Shown: positions 1-8,471 of the stretch, one piece after another | How positions within the stretch are numbered: position 1 is the first letter of the stretch | How the letters are laid out: the number at the start of each line of letters is the position of its first letter | Source of the DNA: an archaeon | Lineage (GTDB): Archaea > Asgardarchaeota > Thorarchaeia > Thorarchaeales > Thorarchaeaceae | Length of the DNA: 8,760 nucleotides | Direction: 5' to 3' | Assembly (NCBI GenBank): GCA_024275415.1 | Contig: JAJRZD010000010.1 | Coordinates: 1-8,760 of the forward strand | Notes under the pieces: generated by a model | Databases searched by the model: none | What the model saw: only the letters and a program-made list of their open reading frames with translations | What the model was told of the DNA's origin: nothing | Program-made: the position numbers and the translations under genes

Positions 1-305
1 ATGAACCGCCGAATCTGAGAGAACACCCTTTGCTCGTGTATCTCAGCTCCCTCCTTGATGCTGACGCTACAGCGATTACCGGCAAAACGGATGTCCTGCA
101 CATCAGATGCTTTTTGCAGGATGCCGGTTGATAGCAGATATCCTATTGTCAGTTCTCTCTCATCACCTGGACTACAGACGAACGCAGCAAGGAACCTCTC
201 ATCTAACCTGACCTCAAGCGCTGTTTCGATTGCAACAAGGTCATCTTCATCACTCGTTCCATCAGGGGAAAGTCGAGTAGTAGGCAAAGACCTGTACGGA
301 CGCAT
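1..305 (-). CDS. fdhD: Formate dehydrogenase accessory sulfurtransferase FdhD, N-terminal part (3' end runs off the window)
   Basis: Manual translation of the minus strand from ATG at 305 is open to base 1: MRPYRSLPTTRLSPDGTSDEDDLVAIETALEVRLDERFLAAFVCSPGDERELTIGYLLSTGILQKASDVQDIRF... This matches the FdhD N-terminal pattern (D-x-V-A-x-E, then S/T-P-x-D-x-x-E-L-x-x-G-[FY]-L-x-[ST]-x-G-I). Absent from the ORF track, probably because it has no stop in the window. Confidence 0.88.
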   Translation of the reverse strand, partial: MRPYRSLPTTRLSPDGTSDEDDLVAIETALEVRLDERFLAAFVCSPGDERELTIGYLLSTGILQKASDVQDIRFAGNRCSVSIKEGAEIHEQRVFSQIRRF

Positions 306-334
306 CAGAACCACATGACCTGTGGAAACAATCG

Positions 335-345
335 GGTTTTAAACC
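335..345. promoter_or_regulatory. Palindromic AT core (GGTTT-T-AAACC), candidate TATA box in the divergent fdhD / DHPS-like intergenic region
   Basis: TTTTAAA at 337-343 reads TTTAAAA on the minus strand, about 30 nt before the fdhD ATG, which is typical archaeal spacing. Use on the plus strand is speculative. Confidence 0.4.
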
Positions 346-448
346 AATTCACGAATCACGATGTTCTAGGTTTTGGGATGTTGATGACAATAGGAGGAGT
401 TTTCAATCGAATGTGTCTTGTGCTTTTGTTCTTGAATGGTGGAAACGT

Positions 449-2032
449 ATGACACAGGATAGGAGAATCCTCCTTCTCACAGGAAGAATGGCGTATAATG
501 AGCTGTCATCGATAATGCTCAATGAACCCAATGTCACTATCAAAATGCTACCTATCTCCGTTGCTGCATTCACAACACCCCACCTTGTCAGGCGACACCT
601 ACCTCAATACATCCCCGAGTGTACCCCTGATATCGTGTTTGTATCGGGCATGGCGCAGGGTGATTACTCAAGTCTAAGCGAAGAGTTTGGGATTCCTGTC
701 CTAAAAGGGACACGAGGACTCTCATCCCTACCACTATTGCTCTCGCATCTTGACGACGCCCTAGAAAATCTCTCTAGCACATCACCTGCTGATGTCATCT
801 TACAAAGAATGATACTTGCTGGTCTAAGGAAACGGATGGTTGAAACAGAACGAGATGCTGTCATCGGAACAAGGAATTTCAGGTTGTCATCTGGGCTAGT
901 GATTGGTATTGACGTACTTCCTCGGATAATGGCCGAGGTTGTTGATGCTTCTACACGACCATTTGACGCAAGCATGAAGGTTGCCAAGTATTATTCTCAG
1001 TGGGCCGATATAATCGATATTGGTGCAACAGTTTCGCGGAGAAACCCCGATCGCATAGCCGAACTGACGGAAGAGATTCGAAACCTCGGGGTTCCTGTGA
1101 GTATCGATTCTCTTGACCCCAAGGAGATTCTATCTGCAGTCGATGCAGGTGCAGAGATTGTCCTTTCGATTGATTATGGCAATGTCGATGTGCTTTCCAA
1201 GTTGCCTGAAGATGTAGCCATTGTCTGTCTGCCCACGAATATCTCGGCTGGTATGTTTTCCCATAATCCCGTAGAACGAGCCCAAAAATGTCACCGACTA
1301 TGCAATGAGATACGACAGCAGGGTTATTCAAAGATTTTAGCAGACCCTATCCTTGAAGCGCCAATCCGACCTGGCATGACTCGTTCACTTGTTGCATTCC
1401 ATCACTTCAGAAGTCTGGATCAGGACACTCCCTTCTTGGCTGGACTTGCCAATGTGACCGAGTTTGTGGACACCGACACGATTGGCGTGAACGCATTGCT
1501 TGCGTTCATGGGTGTCGAGTTAGGCATCTCTGTATTTCTGTCAACCGAAGAACGGCATCCTACCACAGGATGCATCAAAGAACTCTCTTCTGCGACCCAG
1601 CTTGCTTTCCTAGCGAAGATGGCTGACGTCCCACCAAAAGAACTTGGCATCACAGCCTTTGCTGCTAAATCAAGCAGGTATAGTGTTCAATCAGTGGTCT
1701 TGGATGATACTTACAAACGAGTGAACAATGGGCGAACCAGTTATACACCCGACCCCAAGGGCTGCTTCAGGATTGGGATTCATCGACTTAGTGGATTGAT
1801 TCTCTGCGAGCATCATGACATGAAAGGAACTATCCTGCGATTTGCCGCTGAGAGATCCTCTTTACTTGTAAGAGAGTTACTTGAAAAAGGGCTTATAGGC
1901 ACATACGAGCACGCTGCCTATCTGGGCGGGGAGCTGATGAAGGCCGAGATTGCGCTCCTCGTCGGACACGATTTTCAACAAGATGAGGCGTGGATTACAG
2001 AATTCAGTCAGAGCATCGGAGATGAACCATAG
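449..2032 (+). CDS. Dihydropteroate synthase-like protein (DUF6513 + pterin-binding TIM barrel + DUF4346; MJ0107/Orf20-type), probably methanopterin-type cofactor biosynthesis
   Basis: N-terminus RILLLTGRMA...LPISVAAFTTP (DUF6513-like); pterin-binding barrel motifs IMAEVVDA, ADIIDIG, VSIDS, ILADPIL, GLANVTEFVDTDTIGVN; C-terminal DPKGCFRI...EHAAYLGGELMKAEIAL...FQQD (DUF4346-like). Start moved from 413 to ATG 449 because GGTGG at 438-442 precedes it and the homology starts there. Confidence 0.88.
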   Translation: MTQDRRILLLTGRMAYNELSSIMLNEPNVTIKMLPISVAAFTTPHLVRRHLPQYIPECTPDIVFVSGMAQGDYSSLSEEFGIPVLKGTRGLSSLPLLLSHLDDALENLSSTSPADVILQRMILAGLRKRMVETERDAVIGTRNFRLSSGLVIGIDVLPRIMAEVVDASTRPFDASMKVAKYYSQWADIIDIGATVSRRNPDRIAELTEEIRNLGVPVSIDSLDPKEILSAVDAGAEIVLSIDYGNVDVLSKLPEDVAIVCLPTNISAGMFSHNPVERAQKCHRLCNEIRQQGYSKILADPILEAPIRPGMTRSLVAFHHFRSLDQDTPFLAGLANVTEFVDTDTIGVNALLAFMGVELGISVFLSTEERHPTTGCIKELSSATQLAFLAKMADVPPKELGITAFAAKSSRYSVQSVVLDDTYKRVNNGRTSYTPDPKGCFRIGIHRLSGLILCEHHDMKGTILRFAAERSSLLVRELLEKGLIGTYEHAAYLGGELMKAEIALLVGHDFQQDEAWITEFSQSIGDEP

Positions 2033-2358: not shown

Positions 2359-3597
2359 ATGATGCTCAACATCAAAGTCGATGCAGTGCTTTTCATTCAG
2401 AGGTATTCAGGGCTCCCCCTTCTTTCTCTAAAACTCAACCCTCGAGTTCTCGACATTGACCCAGCACTGATTTCGGGATTCCTAATGGCAATTCAGGCAT
2501 TCTCCGCAGAGGTCATTGAAAAGGGCACTGAAGAGTTCCAGATCGACTATGGGAAGCGACTATTCACTGTCATAGTTGGCTCTGAAACCATGGCTGTAGC
2601 TGTGACAACCGAAGGATCTAGTGATGCTATCATTCCTGTGTTAAGAGAACTCCAAAAGGAGTTTGAAATGAACCACTACCTCGATCTAGAGATCCATGGG
2701 CCGTCAAACATATATGACGAATTCAAACTGGAGATTGCAGAACACTTCGGTCTTCAGGACATTGCCCTGTCATGGGTTCCTGTTGATAAAAAGTGCGATG
2801 ATTCGGAACTCGCAATCTCCCCAATTGCACCCTACATTGATGGCTCGTCTTCCATTTCTGATATCATCGAAGCCTCTGGCATCCCAAAGGAACAGGTTCT
2901 CAAGGAAATCTCAAAGCTATGGACTACGGGCGAAATCGACCTCAGCAATATCCTTGAGCACACGGATATTATCATTCCCACAAATGAGTTCTACAAGTAC
3001 ATCCAGACAGGCACAAAGGAACGTCCTGATTTGAAAAAGTTCTCTCCCTCATTGATATCATTGCTCCCACGACTCGTTTCATGTTTTGATGGCCGTACTA
3101 CAGTGGCGGAAATAGCCAAACAGTATGACCCACAGGTCTATGACCTACTTGACACGCTTGTTCGGATGGGTGCATTGCAAATACTCAGCCCCGAGAAGAA
3201 ACGTATCCTGTTGGCAAAAGAACTTCTGGTAAAAGTCCTCGAGATTGCATCAGGACTCTACTCCACTCAGGTTGTGCTGGAAACCCTCACCGAAGTGTTG
3301 CGTAAGACTGACTGTCCTGAAATCCTTGCCGAAGTGCATATCAAGCAAAATGAATGGAATGTGGACTTTGGATTCCTCCTCTATGACAATCATAGTCCGA
3401 ATGATATCATGAATATCCATGCTTCATGGATTGACCTGTTGACCAATCTGATCGCTTTGCTACCTTCAAACAAGAAGAAGAAATTGGCTGAACGGTTAGT
3501 CCACTCATTACAAGAGGAGTTCTTTGAAAAGTACTCGGGCAATGAACTTGAAGGATTCGAAGAGTTCTCTCTCTCACTCGAGGCAGAGTTATCATAA
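2359..3597 (+). CDS. Asgard-type longin domain + two winged-helix modules (NPRL2-like) + C-terminal helical domain
   Basis: Residues ~1-110 show the longin pattern (AVLFIQRYSGLPLL...DPALISGFLMAIQAFSAE...strand-strand-strand-helix). IAPYIDG...I..I......VL..I..L...G.I.L..IL.....IPT and FDGRTTVAEIA...LVRMGALQIL are two WH-like repeats. RBS GGTGA; double stop TAA TGA. Confidence 0.75.
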   Translation: MMLNIKVDAVLFIQRYSGLPLLSLKLNPRVLDIDPALISGFLMAIQAFSAEVIEKGTEEFQIDYGKRLFTVIVGSETMAVAVTTEGSSDAIIPVLRELQKEFEMNHYLDLEIHGPSNIYDEFKLEIAEHFGLQDIALSWVPVDKKCDDSELAISPIAPYIDGSSSISDIIEASGIPKEQVLKEISKLWTTGEIDLSNILEHTDIIIPTNEFYKYIQTGTKERPDLKKFSPSLISLLPRLVSCFDGRTTVAEIAKQYDPQVYDLLDTLVRMGALQILSPEKKRILLAKELLVKVLEIASGLYSTQVVLETLTEVLRKTDCPEILAEVHIKQNEWNVDFGFLLYDNHSPNDIMNIHASWIDLLTNLIALLPSNKKKKLAERLVHSLQEEFFEKYSGNELEGFEEFSLSLEAELS

Positions 3598-3615
3598 TGA
3601 GTTTCGGATTATGAA

Positions 3616-3632
3616 CAGAATATGTATTTAAT
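3616..3632 (+). promoter_or_regulatory. Possible BRE/TATA (CAGAA...TATTTAAT) for the ODP operon
   Basis: Purine run followed by an AT-rich box in the 87-nt spacer; RBS-like GGGTG at 3673-3677 before ATG 3685. Confidence 0.3.
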
Positions 3633-3684
3633 GAGATACTATATCAACGTCGTATAACATAATCCGCTTTTTGGGTGCAACACG

Positions 3685-4419
3685 ATGACAGCGATAGATC
3701 CTGAGAAGGCAGTAGAGGTCAAGCCCAACCTGTGGTGGATTGGTTGGCCTGACTATGATGCAGGTTTCTCGAACAATCCCTACCTATTGATTGAGGGTGA
3801 TGAGGTCGTTCTTTTCGATCCCGGATCCCGGTTTGATACACATTGGGGCTGGGTCAAGAAGAAGATCGAGTCCATCATCCCTGTTTCGAAGATCACAATG
3901 GTAGTAGTACATCATCAGGATCCCGACCTATGTGCTGCTATCCCTCTTGTAGAAGAAGAGATTGGTGTCAATAACTTTGAGATCGTGACCACCGAACGCA
4001 CCTCCCTTTTCATACCCTACTATGGTGTCAAGACCGAGGTGACGGCGGTAGATGATGGTGAGTCAATCGAAATCGGGACTGAAGGAAGAGAACTTCTTTT
4101 CATAACGAGCCCATATCTGCATTTCCCGGGCGCCATGGTGACATACGACACAAAAGAGAAGGTACTTTTCTCTTCTGACATATTTGCAGGCTTCTCGCTG
4201 GACTGGTCACTCTACGCAAACGAATACTATCTTGAGGCTATGAAAGTGTTCTCGCAACCCTATCTCTCCGACACCCGCCATGTCAAGAATTTCCTGAGGA
4301 AGATCGAAGGACTAGACATCGATATGATTTGCCCACAGCACGGATCGATTCTGCAGGGCGAAATAATACAAAAAGCAATAGACACCCTACGAGATCTGGA
4401 GGTGGGCGTATGGGAGTAG
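3685..4419 (+). CDS. Oxygen-binding di-iron protein (ODP); stand-alone flavodiiron-like metallo-beta-lactamase fold domain
   Basis: Motifs NPYLLIEGDEVVLFDPG, HHQDPDLC, PYLHFPG, YD...LFSSDIF and ICPQHG. HQDPD and PQHG distinguish ODP from the FprA/FDP HxExDH motif. At 244 aa there is no flavodoxin domain. Confidence 0.85.
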   Translation: MTAIDPEKAVEVKPNLWWIGWPDYDAGFSNNPYLLIEGDEVVLFDPGSRFDTHWGWVKKKIESIIPVSKITMVVVHHQDPDLCAAIPLVEEEIGVNNFEIVTTERTSLFIPYYGVKTEVTAVDDGESIEIGTEGRELLFITSPYLHFPGAMVTYDTKEKVLFSSDIFAGFSLDWSLYANEYYLEAMKVFSQPYLSDTRHVKNFLRKIEGLDIDMICPQHGSILQGEIIQKAIDTLRDLEVGVWE

Positions 4420-4727
4420 ATCCAGTAAAGGCAAAACAGCTCGTTGACGTCTTAGTCGCAAGAGGTTTAGGTCTCTACGGACGCAAGAAGATGGTCCAAA
4501 TCTGCTATGATAGCGGCGTTGCTCTGCTCGATGACGACTCCACTGATTGGCTTGGTGATGATATTGGGAGCGCAGTGAATGACTTCCTCGTCAATTATGC
4601 CAAGTTCAATCTTGCAGCCAAGATGACCGCAATGGTCCTTGCAAAGAAGTTCGACATCGATCTTCCAGAGGGACTGAAGAGGAAGAAAAAGCGCAAGTCT
4701 CGGCTGAGGAGATTGCTGGGCAGATAG
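4410..4727 (+). CDS. 105-aa hypothetical helical protein with a polybasic C-terminal tail, overlapping the ODP gene
   Basis: Strong RBS GGAGGTG at 4398-4404 before ATG 4410; 10-nt overlap with the ODP stop, suggesting translational coupling. Protein MGVDPVKAKQLVDVL...KRKKKRKSRLRRLLGR. The ORF-track start at 4329 is a spurious extension. Confidence 0.85.
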   Translation: MGVDPVKAKQLVDVLVARGLGLYGRKKMVQICYDSGVALLDDDSTDWLGDDIGSAVNDFLVNYAKFNLAAKMTAMVLAKKFDIDLPEGLKRKKKRKSRLRRLLGR

Positions 4728-4851
4728 TTGAAGATATTCCATGCTCCAACCACACGTTCTGACCGTTTCATCTAAGATGGCTGAAAATGCTTCAATCTCG
4801 TTCAGACATAAGTAAAAAAAACAGTTTTTAGGGATTGATAATGCATGGGTG

Positions 4852-4871
4852 GTTCCAGCACTTGCTGGAAC
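4852..4871. repeat. Near-perfect 20-bp palindrome GTTCCAGCA-CT-TGCTGGAAC
   Basis: 9-bp arms at 4852-4860 and 4863-4871 in the intergenic region about 100 nt upstream of the wHTH gene; operator or RNA hairpin. Confidence 0.7.
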
Positions 4872-4971
4872 GACAACCAATCATCTCAACGTGTTCAGCA
4901 TAGAAATCTGTTATCACATAGGATTAAGTAGTTAAAAGAGTGGATACTGTTCTACCAGCAGCAAGACGGAG

Positions 4972-5808
4972 TTGAATCAACTGAACAAAGATGCGACCCT
5001 GAACAATTTGTTCAATGCTCTTTCACACCATATCAGGCGAAAAATTATTGCCATGATTGGGATTAATGGTTCAATCTCCTATACCGAGCTGACCGCACTC
5101 AAACTAGAACCAGGAACACTCTATTTTCATATTGATGTCCTGGCAAAAGCTGACGAACCGTTAGTCGAACAGATTGAGAACAAGAGGTATGTTCTCACTG
5201 CTGCAGGGCGGTCGGCATACGAGCTTATCCAAAAAGGAGAAGATGGATTATATTGGATTGAACAAGAAAGGAATCCCTCTTCAACCACACCACTGGTTAA
5301 AGTTCTGAGCATATCGCCCGTCATACGAAGAATCCAATCCGATCCTTGGCGATTCTGGCTGGACATCCTCCTCTTTCTGGGTGCCTATGGCTATTTGTCA
5401 TATCGTGTAGGTCTCATACCGATTTTCTTGTTTTTCATAGAGGGTTCGTTCGATATCGGAATCACAGTGTTTGCGGCACTGCTTGCATGGTTGTCAACCT
5501 ATCTATTGGTCGAATTGATATCACTCCCAATCCTTGGAAAGCGAAAATTCACCCCAGCCTTTCTAATGTCTGTTCCTGTAGCGTTCCTCCCATTCGCCAT
5601 TTTGGAGCTTGCGCTGAGCTTCATCAGTGAAACTGTGGTCATAACCGGATTCCCCTTGACACTCATCCTAACCGCAGCAATTGCGTGGAGCACTTACATC
5701 CTCACCCACTCGCTGGCAAGAGCAAAGGTCGTAAGACCACTGCAAGCTGGAATAGTTACTCTTCTTGTCACCAATTTCAACTTGCTAATACTGGCTCTGC
5801 TGACCTAG
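4972..5808 (+). CDS. Membrane-anchored transcription regulator: N-terminal ArsR/HTH_20-like winged helix + about 5 TM Yip1-like domain
   Basis: LFNALSHHIRRKII...SYTEL...GTLYFHIDVL...YVLTAAGRSAYELI is a classic archaeal wHTH. The hydrophobic C-terminal half has LGKRKF...AFLPFAI and AWSTYIL...LQAGIVTLL, resembling the Yip1 pattern. TTG 4972 is the only start after the in-frame TAA at 4933. Confidence 0.75.
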   Translation: MNQLNKDATLNNLFNALSHHIRRKIIAMIGINGSISYTELTALKLEPGTLYFHIDVLAKADEPLVEQIENKRYVLTAAGRSAYELIQKGEDGLYWIEQERNPSSTTPLVKVLSISPVIRRIQSDPWRFWLDILLFLGAYGYLSYRVGLIPIFLFFIEGSFDIGITVFAALLAWLSTYLLVELISLPILGKRKFTPAFLMSVPVAFLPFAILELALSFISETVVITGFPLTLILTAAIAWSTYILTHSLARAKVVRPLQAGIVTLLVTNFNLLILALLT

Positions 5809-5904
5809 GTCTGATTTCACTCCACTCAAACATTATCCTGTCCATTTTTCGCACTCGAACTCGACTTCGAGATTAGTCGAACTCCCTTTTCCATAAACAT
5901 CGAA

Positions 5905-5920
5905 TAGAAATATTATATAC
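5905..5920 (+). promoter_or_regulatory. BRE + TATA box (AGAAA-TATTATATA) for surface protein 1
   Basis: Canonical purine-rich BRE directly followed by TTATATA at 5913-5919; RBS GGTGAT at 5944-5949 before ATG 5953. Confidence 0.7.
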
Positions 5921-5952
5921 TTATTGAATGAAATATCTACAATGGTGATCGA

Positions 5953-6957
5953 ATGAAAACCGCGACACTAAAACTAATGTCCCTCGTAATGGCGGCAATT
6001 CTTCTGGCATCTGTGCCAGCAGCTATTGCCCAAGGCAACGGAATAGGATACCAATATAGCTCAGGAATGGCAAGCCTGACAACCGAAAAGATCGGTGTGA
6101 GAGTATCTGCATATAATCAAGTCCCACACTTCCAGTGGTGGAACGTAACATCACCAGGAAATGACTACCATGTCATGTTCCTGAAGCTCTTTGAGGCCAA
6201 TGACACCAACGGTGATGGCATCTTCGACCCAGAGGTGGATCGACTTGTCGGTGTGCCCTTCTTACTACCTTCTGGCAACTGGAACTTCAGTGGATTCCAG
6301 ACAGTGGAAGAGGACTCTGTCGTCACAGAAGTTCACTTCAACTTCACGACAACCGAAACCTATACTTTCACTACTCCCACTACGCCCACAACAGTCCCCT
6401 CACAGACACCATCTTCCTTTGATGTGACAATCCAGATTCGTGTTCACATAAACACGGCAAATCCGGAAGAGATGAAGTTTGACTTGATCCTGTCTGGATG
6501 GGTTTGGACCTACGATGATTCGATTTTGGTCTTCCAGTTCACAATAACTGAAAGTGAACATGGTGCAGACCAAGGAGTTGTCGAACCCTCTACATTCGCT
6601 CAGGAAGGCAACCGTTTCCAGTTTGGAGAAGCTTACATGGAGTTTGCCCAACAGGCTGAAGCCGGGACTACCGCGATTCCGGTCAATGGAACCTCTGGCG
6701 AAGGTACCGGCGATGAGGCTGGAACGTCAGTATATCTGGCATTTGGGTACTTTGGCAATGAAACCTTGGAGTATGATCCTATCCTTGGCATTTCATCCAC
6801 ATCAGATGATGGCACGGATGATGGAAGTGCTGATGGTAGCGATGATGGCTCCGACGGTTCAATAGGACAGATTCTTGGTGACAACCAACTCCTTCTATTC
6901 GCAGGCGGCATTTTTGTTGTCGTGTTGGTGATTGCTGTCCTAAAGGTGAAGAGATGA
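5953..6957 (+). CDS. Secreted, C-terminally membrane-anchored surface glycoprotein (paralog 1) with a DxNxDG Ca-binding-like motif
   Basis: Signal peptide MKTATLKLMSLVMAAILLASVPAAIA|Q; DTNGDGIFDPEVD; Thr/Pro insert; several N-x-S/T sequons; Asp/Gly/Ser linker; TM helix LLLFAGGIFVVVLVIAVL followed by KVKR. Confidence 0.85.
   Translation: MKTATLKLMSLVMAAILLASVPAAIAQGNGIGYQYSSGMASLTTEKIGVRVSAYNQVPHFQWWNVTSPGNDYHVMFLKLFEANDTNGDGIFDPEVDRLVGVPFLLPSGNWNFSGFQTVEEDSVVTEVHFNFTTTETYTFTTPTTPTTVPSQTPSSFDVTIQIRVHINTANPEEMKFDLILSGWVWTYDDSILVFQFTITESEHGADQGVVEPSTFAQEGNRFQFGEAYMEFAQQAEAGTTAIPVNGTSGEGTGDEAGTSVYLAFGYFGNETLEYDPILGISSTSDDGTDDGSADGSDDGSDGSIGQILGDNQLLLFAGGIFVVVLVIAVLKVKR
6802..6861 (+). repeat. 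Coding low-complexity (S/T)DDG-type repeat forming an acidic juxtamembrane linker
   Basis: SDDGTDDGSADGSDDGSDGS, encoded by GATGATGG-like units with varied codons. Confidence 0.75.
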
Positions 6958-7038: not shown

Positions 7039-7180
7039 GGTCACGACCATCATCTGACCAGACACCATCATCTTAAACCTGTAGAAAACGCCACAATTGA
7101 TGCAGATATCCATCCTTCCGAACCGAAGGAAACCAAAATAAGTACATTTGAACTATCATGAACTACCAAAAGGTGCTCAC

Positions 7181-8191
7181 ATGCAATATCCCAAAACGAA
7201 ACTGATTATTCCTATCGTTTCACTGGTTATCCTCTTATCATTGCCTCTTGTAGATGCCCAAATGACAGGAATCGACTATGGCTATTCCACTGGGATTGCG
7301 GTTCTTAGCACTGAGGATATTGGATTACGAGTCACTGCATACAATCAGGTTCCACATTTCCAATGGTGGAATATGACCTCCCCTAGAAATGACTATCATC
7401 TGATGTTCCTGAGGATCTTTGAAACGGATGATGTGAACAATAATGGAATCTTCGAATTGGGGGTAGACCTACCTGTGGGTGTGCCATATGTCCTCCCTTC
7501 TGATAGTTGGGAGTTCAGTGGTTTCAAGACACATGAGGTGAACTCCATCGTCGAATACGTCCAATTCAATTTCACGGTTTCAACTAGCTTTCCCCTACCC
7601 ACGACCCCAACGACTCCCATCACAACTCCCACCACCCCCACATCCCCAACAACATTCCCAGTCACCCAGATTGGTGATGATGAGCTTCAAATTCGCATTC
7701 ACATGAATGCAAGTAACCCACAACAAATCAAATTTGATGTCTTCCTCTCTCACTGGTACTGGTTATACGACGACTCTCTACTGGTGTTCCAATTCACTGT
7801 GACTGAGAGTATTCATGGTCAGGATACCGATCACAGAGCTCCGTCCAACTTCTCGAAAGATGGCACTCGTTTCAATTTTGATGCAGCATACATGGAATAT
7901 GCAGAACAGGCTTCAGCTGGTAACAAGTCCATCTCGGTTTTTGCGTCATCTGGAGAGGGACTAGAAGGCGAAGGAGGAACATCCATCTATCTCTCATTCC
8001 AGAATTTCGGGAATGAAAGTTTGGTGTATGACCCTACACTGGGGATAAATGGCTCGACACCTGTTTCCTCAACCACATCCACCACTGGTACGCTTCCTGG
8101 CACCGACATCGAGTATGATGAGGTTTTTATCTTGTTCGGTGGAGTTAGCATTATCACTCTAGTGGCAATACTATCAAAACACCGGAGATGA
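7181..8191 (+). CDS. Secreted, C-terminally membrane-anchored surface glycoprotein (paralog 2)
   Basis: Colinear with 5953-6957 (shared AYNQVPHFQWWN, NDYH, KFD, YDDS.LVFQFT.TES, FGNE.L.YDP.LG). Signal peptide ending VDA|Q; TM helix followed by KHRR. Start moved from TTG 7148 to ATG 7181 because of RBS AGGTG at 7171-7175. Confidence 0.85.
   Translation: MQYPKTKLIIPIVSLVILLSLPLVDAQMTGIDYGYSTGIAVLSTEDIGLRVTAYNQVPHFQWWNMTSPRNDYHLMFLRIFETDDVNNNGIFELGVDLPVGVPYVLPSDSWEFSGFKTHEVNSIVEYVQFNFTVSTSFPLPTTPTTPITTPTTPTSPTTFPVTQIGDDELQIRIHMNASNPQQIKFDVFLSHWYWLYDDSLLVFQFTVTESIHGQDTDHRAPSNFSKDGTRFNFDAAYMEYAEQASAGNKSISVFASSGEGLEGEGGTSIYLSFQNFGNESLVYDPTLGINGSTPVSSTTSTTGTLPGTDIEYDEVFILFGGVSIITLVAILSKHRR
7598..7654 (+). 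repeat. Coding Pro-Thr-Thr tandem repeat (mucin-like insert)
   Basis: PTTPTTPITTPTTPTSPTT; a shorter equivalent lies at 6370-6417 in paralog 1. Confidence 0.8.
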
Positions 8192-8261
8192 GAGCGAATC
8201 TGCAACCTTCATATCGATCTGTTTTTAGCCTGTTCTCAAAGGCATAAGACCAGTGGTGCTC

Positions 8262-8414
8262 ATGGATATCGACAAGCTAACCAACTGTGACCTTGCGGAA
8301 CAAAATCGTCAGGACGAACTTGAACGAAGAGCGAAAGGTGCGAAATGGAAATGTAAGGAATGCGGACGCGCCTCTTACAAGAATGAGCATTTGTGTGAGC
8401 CTGTGGAGATTTAG
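8262..8414 (+). CDS. 50-aa four-cysteine metal-binding microprotein (C-x21-CxxCGR-x8-LCxP)
   Basis: Manual translation: MDIDKLTNCDLAEQNRQDELERRAKGAKWKCKECGRASYKNEHLCEPVEI*. RBS GTGGTG at 8253-8258. The CxxCGR...LCxP pattern is one I recognise from small uncharacterised prokaryotic proteins. Not in the ORF track. Confidence 0.8.
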   Translation: MDIDKLTNCDLAEQNRQDELERRAKGAKWKCKECGRASYKNEHLCEPVEI

Positions 8415-8471
8415 ATAACCTGTTTCTTCCTTAGAACGCAAAGGGAGTAGACGGAAACATGCCCCCACAGT

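Follow-up and report, generated by a model that had tools for sequence, protein, structure and literature searches.

Oxygen-binding di-iron proteins (ODPs) are known to sense O2 or Fe(II) in bacteria, where they serve chemotaxis and second-messenger signalling, which raises the question of what such a protein signals to when it is encoded in an Asgard archaeon beside none of its usual partners. The window analysed here, 8.76 kb long, spans an entire contig (G000:C93) from a Thorarchaeota-type genome bin of 3.5 Mb and 93% completeness, and in it an ODP gene stands between a gene for an NPRL2-like longin protein (gene A) and a small gene of no known family (gene C). An earlier note on this DNA had read the three as a possible sensor-to-GTPase-regulator circuit. 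The layout on which it drew, three co-oriented genes with an 87-nt gap and a 10-nt overlap (4410-4419, shared by ODP and C), had exactly the coordinates claimed (Table 1), and scans against Pfam and NCBIfam likewise found none of the usual ODP outputs (chemoreceptor, cyclic-dinucleotide enzyme, kinase) among the window genes. We found that the three genes recur together across Asgard archaea, and that a paralogue of the A-C pair is coupled to a Rab-like GTPase.

Conserved linkage of the three genes

We examined 34 loci with an ODP of the window's clade: 8 in the order of the window, 14 in six other Asgard families and 12 on further assembly contigs. Within the order, the clade was present in 8 of 87 genomes and 6 of 17 genera, and no copy was found in the other six genomes belonging to the genus of the window. 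Both A and C adjoined ODP at seven of these eight loci; at the eighth (G004) A is present and the contig breaks off within the ODP gene. Outside the Thorarchaeaceae, the window's own family (Thor below), C followed ODP directly at all 14 loci, as it did on all 12 further contigs, and A was adjacent at 11 of the 14, the other three having a fetched contig that was short or ended beside the cassette. Over all loci examined, A adjoined the pair wherever the contig extended far enough. Three gene orders were seen: A-ODP-C, ODP-C-A and one with A divergent. Lokiarchaeum ossiferum has ODP-C-A, and two Heimdall contigs have ODP-C-A and A-ODP-C, with A and C confirmed in all three by hidden Markov model searches. 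ODP followed by C is the invariant core of the cassette, and A lies before it, after it or divergent from it.

In a sample of 251 genomes of the phylum, 20 genomes had ODP and 63 had C. In families other than Thor, ODP and C had the same count family by family (six families, 14 genomes) and their coordinates abutted, and in these 14 genomes C was found only beside ODP. Members of the ODP clade carried the labels Heimdall, Hod, Kari, Odin, Loki and Promethearchaeota at 52-70% identity, and close homologues of A (41-62% identity) belonged to A-ODP-C cassettes in which the small overlap recurs and the flanking genes are unrelated. The three-gene arrangement is far beyond chance, because it recurs with unrelated flanking genes in every ODP-clade locus examined. 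This survey of synteny had been set beforehand as the test on which the idea of a module could fail, and it showed the three genes linked in related genomes well beyond Thorarchaeota. Among the Thor cassettes, the ODPs were 77-84% identical to each other (with one divergent, at 53%) and the A proteins only 36-48%; the better conservation of ODP fits a constrained sensor. Oxidative-stress genes lay beside the cassette at various loci (MsrA/PMSR; two OsmC; two AhpC with a nitroreductase; a hemerythrin-PAS protein), and these neighbours fit an oxygen-related role but are not conserved.

Properties of the three proteins

Sensing of O2 and Fe(II) by ODPs is established, and they signal via a partner to which they are genetically coupled (Muok et al. 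2019, cited in PMC7319448 and PMC7666581). The window ODP matched Pfam PF19583 over profile positions 2-194 of 194 (E 8.9e-52, 176 bits against a cut-off of 27.2) and the solved ODPs 6qrq (E 2e-26) and 6qnm (E 3e-18). Its HQDPD, LH(F), S(S/G)D and PQHG motifs align with both structures, and H77, D79, D81, H146, D165 and H219 are invariant in 9 of 9 cassette ODPs, the assignment of the metal ligands being taken from the solved homologues. The family match, the solved relatives and the intact ligand motif bear out the identity claimed in the earlier note, and by sequence the window ODP is a genuine member of the family. It is the sole single-domain ODP of its genome; the other PF19583 matches there fall in unrelated frames, two of about 400 aa, with E 1e-22 or weaker. 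It has no flavodoxin module, and its matches to flavodiiron proteins span only the N-terminal core of the latter (residues ~30-245 of 400-480). The isoelectric point (pI) of ODP is 4.5, and its relatives are often labelled flavorubredoxin or FprA in the source annotation.

The AlphaFold2 (AF2) model of protein A, with a mean predicted local distance difference test score (pLDDT) of 85 and a predicted TM-score (pTM) of 0.72, starts with a longin domain of the strand and helix order beta-beta-alpha-beta-beta-beta-alpha. This domain superposed on Sec22b with Z 13.1 and a root-mean-square deviation of 3.1 over 120 residues (A 6-134), and many other longins reached Z 10-12. In a Foldseek search of the PDB, the top 13 matches of A were all NPRL2, NPRL3, Npr2 or Npr3 chains of GATOR1/SEAC (E 2e-7 to 2e-4, ~330-500 aligned columns). 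The global TM-score against NPRL2/3 chains was only ~0.25, because the domain arrangement differs between A and these proteins. We found 313 relatives of A among 1.8 billion representatives and used 53 of them for a profile, which matched human NPRL2 (E 1.3e-7, profile 87-281 against NPRL2 123-329) and yeast Npr2 (E 2.3e-4). Taken with the fold, these profile matches mean that the NPRL2 likeness of A is homology and not shape alone, so the longin and winged-helix architecture proposed for A stands. No Pfam or NCBIfam family reached its cut-off for A, and the Pfam NPR2 and NPR3 models gave no match at E <=0.1 for A, nor at E <=0.01 for the 53 members. A sub-threshold match to HTH_NPRL3 had E 0.03 for A and 2.4e-4 for one family member. 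Protein A has a pI of 4.7 overall, and its winged-helix 1 region has a net charge of -7. Other proteins of the window's genome (contigs C58, C64, C42, C1 and C45) matched only the longin region of A, with E 1e-4 to 4e-2, in line with the known large expansion of longins in Asgard archaea.

A GP motif at the loop before strand 2 is reported to be specific to longins of the GTPase-activating protein (GAP) type (PMC12290439). At the same loop A has GxP rather than GP, and the glycine and proline (G18 and P20) are invariant in 15 of 15 Thor ODP-type A proteins and in 25-26 of 26 scorable A proteins of the Rab-linked type described below. In two ODP-linked rows outside Thor, L066 (Lokiarchaeum ossiferum) and L078, the proline is replaced by alanine.

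Protein C had no match in Pfam, NCBIfam or the PDB at the thresholds used, and a feature-based protein atlas search gave nothing usable. Its family comprises 136 proteins, and those named in the source are Asgard proteins (Thor, plus one with a Loki and one with a Hodarchaeales label) called hypothetical. The mechanical list of open reading frames (ORFs) starts gene C at an upstream TTG (4329); the ATG at 4410 was taken here, and homologues of C share this start methionine. A Shine-Dalgarno-like site, GGAGGTG, lies within the 3' end of the ODP gene, and together with the 10-nt overlap it suggests that ODP and C are translationally coupled. A four-helix core is predicted for C, and four helices are present in the C-equivalent domain (residues 445-519) in the model of the fusion protein described in the next section. 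C has one conserved cysteine and no metal or flavin motif, and its basic tail is kept in the ODP-type C proteins of Thor, Heimdall and Loki. We rejected the idea that C is a free copy of the C-terminal domain of A, for which profile-profile comparison gave a probability of 0.2% and a chance-level match of 16 columns to winged helix 1.

A paralogous pair linked to a Rab-like GTPase

Homologues of A with 31-36% identity (A'), together with homologues of C with 24-40% identity (C'), were found in A'-C'-GTPase cassettes lacking an ODP. There the A' and C' genes either adjoin or are fused, with the order and the shared strand that A and C have. The window's own genome has such a cassette on another contig (G000:C73, locus L022, 6323-8498), where an A'::C' fusion of 529 aa is followed 64 nt later by the GTPase gene. 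Among the 30 A'-C' loci listed, a Rab-like GTPase followed the pair in 24, with a gap of about 65-170 nt, and several of the others stop at, or close to, the limits of the DNA fetched. The GTPase is Rab-like by its matches to Rab35 and Rab1 (~1e-37 to 1e-36) and to a solved Thorarchaeota Rab (9e-35). The small protein after A' in these loci is 34% identical to C (E 6e-23). At least 15 of the 30 loci have A' and C' fused, and because the paralogues are joined in one polypeptide (a Rosetta-stone fusion), A and C form a unit, to which either an ODP or a GTPase is attached. The tail of the Rab-type C' is acidic and amphipathic instead of polybasic, or absent in the fusion shown.

In the trees of both A and C, the Rab-type proteins, all from the Thor family, fell on one side of a single branch, with support in the Shimodaira-Hasegawa-like approximate likelihood ratio test (SH-aLRT) of 100 for A and 84 for C. 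Under a midpoint root, they stood beside the Thor ODP-type clades, with the Loki and Heimdall ODP-type proteins outside. The parsimonious reading of this topology, in which the root is a midpoint root and not an inferred one, is that the Rab type would be a derivative confined to Thor and not the ancestral state. The earlier note had linked the cassette to regulation of GTPases. This link holds to the extent that the A/C pair is genomically tied to small GTPases through its paralogue, since the A'-C' pair, often fused, precedes a Rab-like GTPase; it is an indirect link, with no GTPase near the ODP-type cassettes themselves.

Several further observations were made on the Rab-type loci. Many Thor genomes (genus g11, for example G038, G046 and G047) have two Rab-type copies, one fused (~530 aa) and one unfused (~425 + ~110 aa), and the fused A'::C' clade is monophyletic (100) in the A tree. 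Some Rab-type cassettes have, immediately upstream of A', a conserved ORF of 94 aa that matches no known family (L008 2326-2610, L009 3391-3675), and in L008 an ArsR-family helix-turn-helix (HTH) gene follows the Rab gene. One Thor genome carries both types on the same strand about 2 kb apart (L061, G014:C6:16000-28000), with ODP-C-A at 3756-6048 and A'-C'-Rab at 7958-10274. In this locus the ODP-C-A cassette is permuted in order and its A is divergent (24% identity), and the A' gene is broken into two frames (7958-8461 and 8500-9348) by a frameshift or a sequencing error.

Proposed mechanism and alternatives

We propose that the three genes encode one conserved Asgard sensor-to-platform signalling module, in which the state of ODP would act via C on A, and we regard the chances of this reading as about even. 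ODP, C and A would form a complex, and the binding partners of the acidic A platform would change, by way of C, with the oxygenation or iron state of ODP. Most likely the output would be protein-protein, by regulating or recruiting a small GTPase encoded elsewhere, and/or by membrane docking through the polybasic tail of C, and DNA binding would be a less likely output. We infer the order of the relay, from ODP to C to A, from gene order only. A complex prediction of A and C with ODP as the scored partner gave 0.00; it was run without controls and bears neither way on binding.

Several points weigh against this module. No GTPase gene was found in or next to any of the ODP-type cassettes, and with the A profile no Rab-type copy was found in the near-complete genomes G003 (98%) and G005 (97%), which have only ODP-type A. 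The module is patchy, occurring in 20 of the 251 sampled Asgard genomes and in 0 of the 6 other genomes of the window's genus. At one locus (L063, 669-1476, on a contig labelled Hodarchaeales), A has lost approximately residues 41-190, that is the longin core and winged helix 1, and only a 205-aa C-terminal ORF is called upstream of ODP-C; since ODP-C is intact there, A may be dispensable in some lineages. Binding of O2 by the window ODP would follow from its motifs only. The arginine finger of NPRL2 (human Arg78) is expected at the beta4-beta5 turn, as placed by longin topology and the human sequence, and no group had a conserved arginine in this turn of A (positions 74-76). R67 is invariant in the Rab-type proteins; most ODP-type proteins of Loki and Heimdall have Q, N or G there, and within the ODP type it is kept only in Thor and some Heimdall proteins. 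As an analogue of the arginine finger R67 was rejected: it lies in the beta3-beta4 turn, at the end of the sheet opposite the GxP loop, and Loki and Heimdall ODP-type proteins do not conserve it. The role of A is probably that of a scaffold or of a regulator without catalysis, and not that of an arginine-finger GAP. Of the circuit drawn in the earlier note, the linkage and the NPRL2 likeness remain, while the link to a GTPase is indirect and no arginine is conserved at the putative finger position.

The A-C platform could also bind just one switch protein, namely ODP in its O2/Fe-bound or free form with no GTPase involved, and in the Thor paralogue a Rab-like GTPase (GTP or GDP form) would have replaced ODP; the output would then be whatever the platform does downstream, such as membrane docking or recruiting factors. 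We consider this unlikely, although the contents of the cassettes are mutually exclusive (ODP without GTPase, or GTPase without ODP) and A and C were co-duplicated, with the same split in both trees. Exchange of the switch also agrees with a tail of C that is polybasic in the ODP type only, with the ODP type standing alone in G003 and G005, and with the lack of conservation in the ODP type of residues suggesting GAP chemistry. However, the two switches do not occupy the same place, since ODP lies between A and C and Rab lies after C, and the many other small GTPases of Thor genomes could serve the ODP-type module.

Two other explanations place the output on DNA or in the ODP itself. An oxygen-responsive transcription regulator, in which the winged helices of A and/or the tail of C would bind DNA under the control of ODP and oxidative-stress genes would be regulated, seems improbable to us. 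A does have weak matches to TrmB and other winged HTH families (E 6e-4, below cut-off), but by profile its winged helices match the protein-binding C-terminal domain of NPRL2; the tail of C has a charge of +11, but A is strongly acidic, winged helix 1 included. Oxidative-stress genes often adjoin the cassette, but the flanking genes are not conserved, which leaves no fixed regulon next door, and the A-ODP spacer holds no conserved operator-like element. Pairing of the paralogue with a GTPase would also be an atypical context for a transcription factor. That ODP is an enzyme, either a scavenger of O2, H2O2 or NO or a hydrolase of the metallo-beta-lactamase fold, with A and C as assembly, localisation or regulatory subunits, we regard as very improbable. 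Its closest non-ODP relatives are the cores of flavodiiron O2/NO reductases, flavorubredoxin/FprA annotations are frequent, and oxidative-stress genes are among the neighbours. Yet the ODP family scores far above flavodiiron proteins, the cassette encodes neither a flavodoxin or rubredoxin domain nor a redox partner, and C has a single conserved cysteine and no metal or flavin motif.

Gene layout of the window

The features of the window are listed in Table 1. The A-ODP spacer, which is possibly the site of an internal promoter, has a similar length in Thor relatives (about 68-100 nt), and an alignment of 8 Thor loci showed no conserved element in it, only AT-rich stretches. A look-up of public RNA and DNA sequencing runs listed none for the window.

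Table 1 Positions of genes, motifs and domains in the 8.76-kb window
Feature	Position	Strand	Description
FdhD sulfurtransferase	3-314	-	N-terminal part, runs off contig end
Dihydropteroate-synthase-like protein	413-2032	+	TIGR00284, E 3e-84; with DUF6513 and pterin-binding DUF4346
Gene A	2359-3597	+	412 aa, NPRL2-like protein
Longin domain of A	residues ~6-134		from AF2 model
Winged helix 1 of A	residues ~140-200		from AF2 model
Winged helix 2 of A	residues ~225-285		from AF2 model
Helical C-terminal domain of A	residues ~286-412		from AF2 model
GxP motif of A	2410-2418	+	G18-L19-P20, in loop before longin strand 2
A-ODP spacer	3598-3684	+	87 nt, AT-rich
ODP gene	3685-4419	+	244 aa, single domain, metallo-beta-lactamase fold
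GGAGGTG, Shine-Dalgarno-like	4397-4403	+	putative ribosome-binding site of C, in ODP 3' end, 6 nt before C ATG
Gene C	4410-4727	+	105 aa from ATG, no known family
Polybasic C-terminal tail of C	4674-4724	+	17 residues, net charge +11
HTH-membrane protein	4972-5808	+	278 aa; weak N-terminal ArsR-type HTH, then several hydrophobic segments; 244 nt downstream of C
Tandem paralogous proteins	5953-6957 and 7148-8191	+	334 and 347 aa; 47% identical, E 9e-100

Polytopic membrane proteins are also encoded downstream of the cassette in L006, L007 and L068, but a fourth conserved gene was ruled out, because these proteins and the one in the window were not convincingly homologous. The HTH-membrane protein of the window and the ArsR gene after Rab in L008 share a weak HTH match only. 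Each of the tandem paralogues further downstream has a signal-like N-terminal hydrophobic stretch, an insert rich in Pro and Thr, and a transmembrane anchor at the C-terminus; no Pfam or NCBIfam family matched either of them, and they are probably surface proteins.

Significance and comparison with known systems

NPRL2-like longins count as eukaryotic signature proteins of Asgard archaea and are not known to have a partner or function. Among the papers searched, none linked ODP with Asgard longin or NPRL2-like proteins. Both protein families were already known, and what is new here is the invariant ODP-C pair, the Asgard-wide coupling to an NPRL2-like protein, the A::C fusions and the alternation of ODP and Rab. 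The module would be a new output class for a known sensor, in which an O2/Fe sensor of bacterial type seems to be connected to a eukaryote-like platform, and NPRL2-like proteins would gain a first concrete functional context in oxygen or iron sensing. C would be an obligate small partner, and the Thor paralogue, with Rab in place of ODP, would serve as a natural experiment. Because the cultured Lokiarchaeum ossiferum carries the module, its proteins could be co-purified and its expression followed under micro-oxic conditions. The module bears on the perception of oxygen by Asgard archaea, which are mostly anaerobic, and on the origin of longin platforms of the GATOR1/folliculin type. In one scenario, which we find doubtful, an ancestral Asgard A-C platform would have served a non-GTPase sensor, ODP, and a later duplication of the pair in Thorarchaeota would have put a Rab-like GTPase in the place of ODP. 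If this were true, a GATOR1-type platform would first have served oxygen/iron signalling among the archaeal relatives of eukaryotes, and a sensor feeding a longin platform would be older than a longin platform regulating a GTPase.

Known ODP sensors of Treponema denticola and Thermotoga maritima (6qrq/6qwo and 6qnm/6r9n; PF19583) are likewise single-domain proteins of ~245 aa with a metallo-beta-lactamase fold, and their HxDxD...H...D...H metal motif aligns with that of the window ODP. They are also encoded by stand-alone sensor genes tightly coupled to the gene of a cognate receptor, as in the window. However, the partners of known ODPs are chemoreceptors or other classical prokaryotic signal-transduction proteins, whereas those in the window are an unnamed helical protein and an NPRL2-type longin. 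The clade of the window ODP is Asgard-wide, and its bacterial relatives have at most 49% identity.

NPRL2 and NPRL3 of GATOR1 (yeast SEACIT) have an N-terminal longin followed by tandem winged helices, as in A. The Gly/Pro motif of A before longin strand 2 has the form GxP and not GP, and A differs from them by an extra C-terminal helical domain of ~125 aa. NPRL2 and NPRL3 assemble with DEPDC5 and act on Rag GTPases, whereas A is accompanied in its cassettes by C and by either ODP or a Rab-like GTPase; none of the cassettes holds a DEPDC5-like or Rag-like gene, and a genome-wide search for either was not made. The Thor paralogue A'-C'-Rab differs from the window in having no ODP and a C' without the polybasic tail. 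A family called NPRL2-like, with a longin and an NPRL2-specific C-terminal domain, has been reported in most Thor and a few Loki metagenome-assembled genomes (Liu et al., bioRxiv 10.1101/2020.10.19.343400; Nature 2021). The lineage and domain organisation given there match A, whose family we found in 71 of 87 genomes of the order, so it is very likely that A belongs to this NPRL2-like family; the text consulted of Liu et al. has no mention of ODP, of a small partner or of the gene neighbourhood.

MglB/MglA and other operons of a Roadblock or longin regulator with a GTPase resemble the cassette in that a gene for a small alpha/beta platform stands beside the gene of its client switch, and the N-terminal domain of A superposes on MglB with Z ~11. 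A differs from MglB in having longin and not Roadblock topology and in being a multidomain protein of 412 aa, and whereas the client in MglB/MglA is a GTPase, the neighbouring "client" in the window cassette is a di-iron protein.

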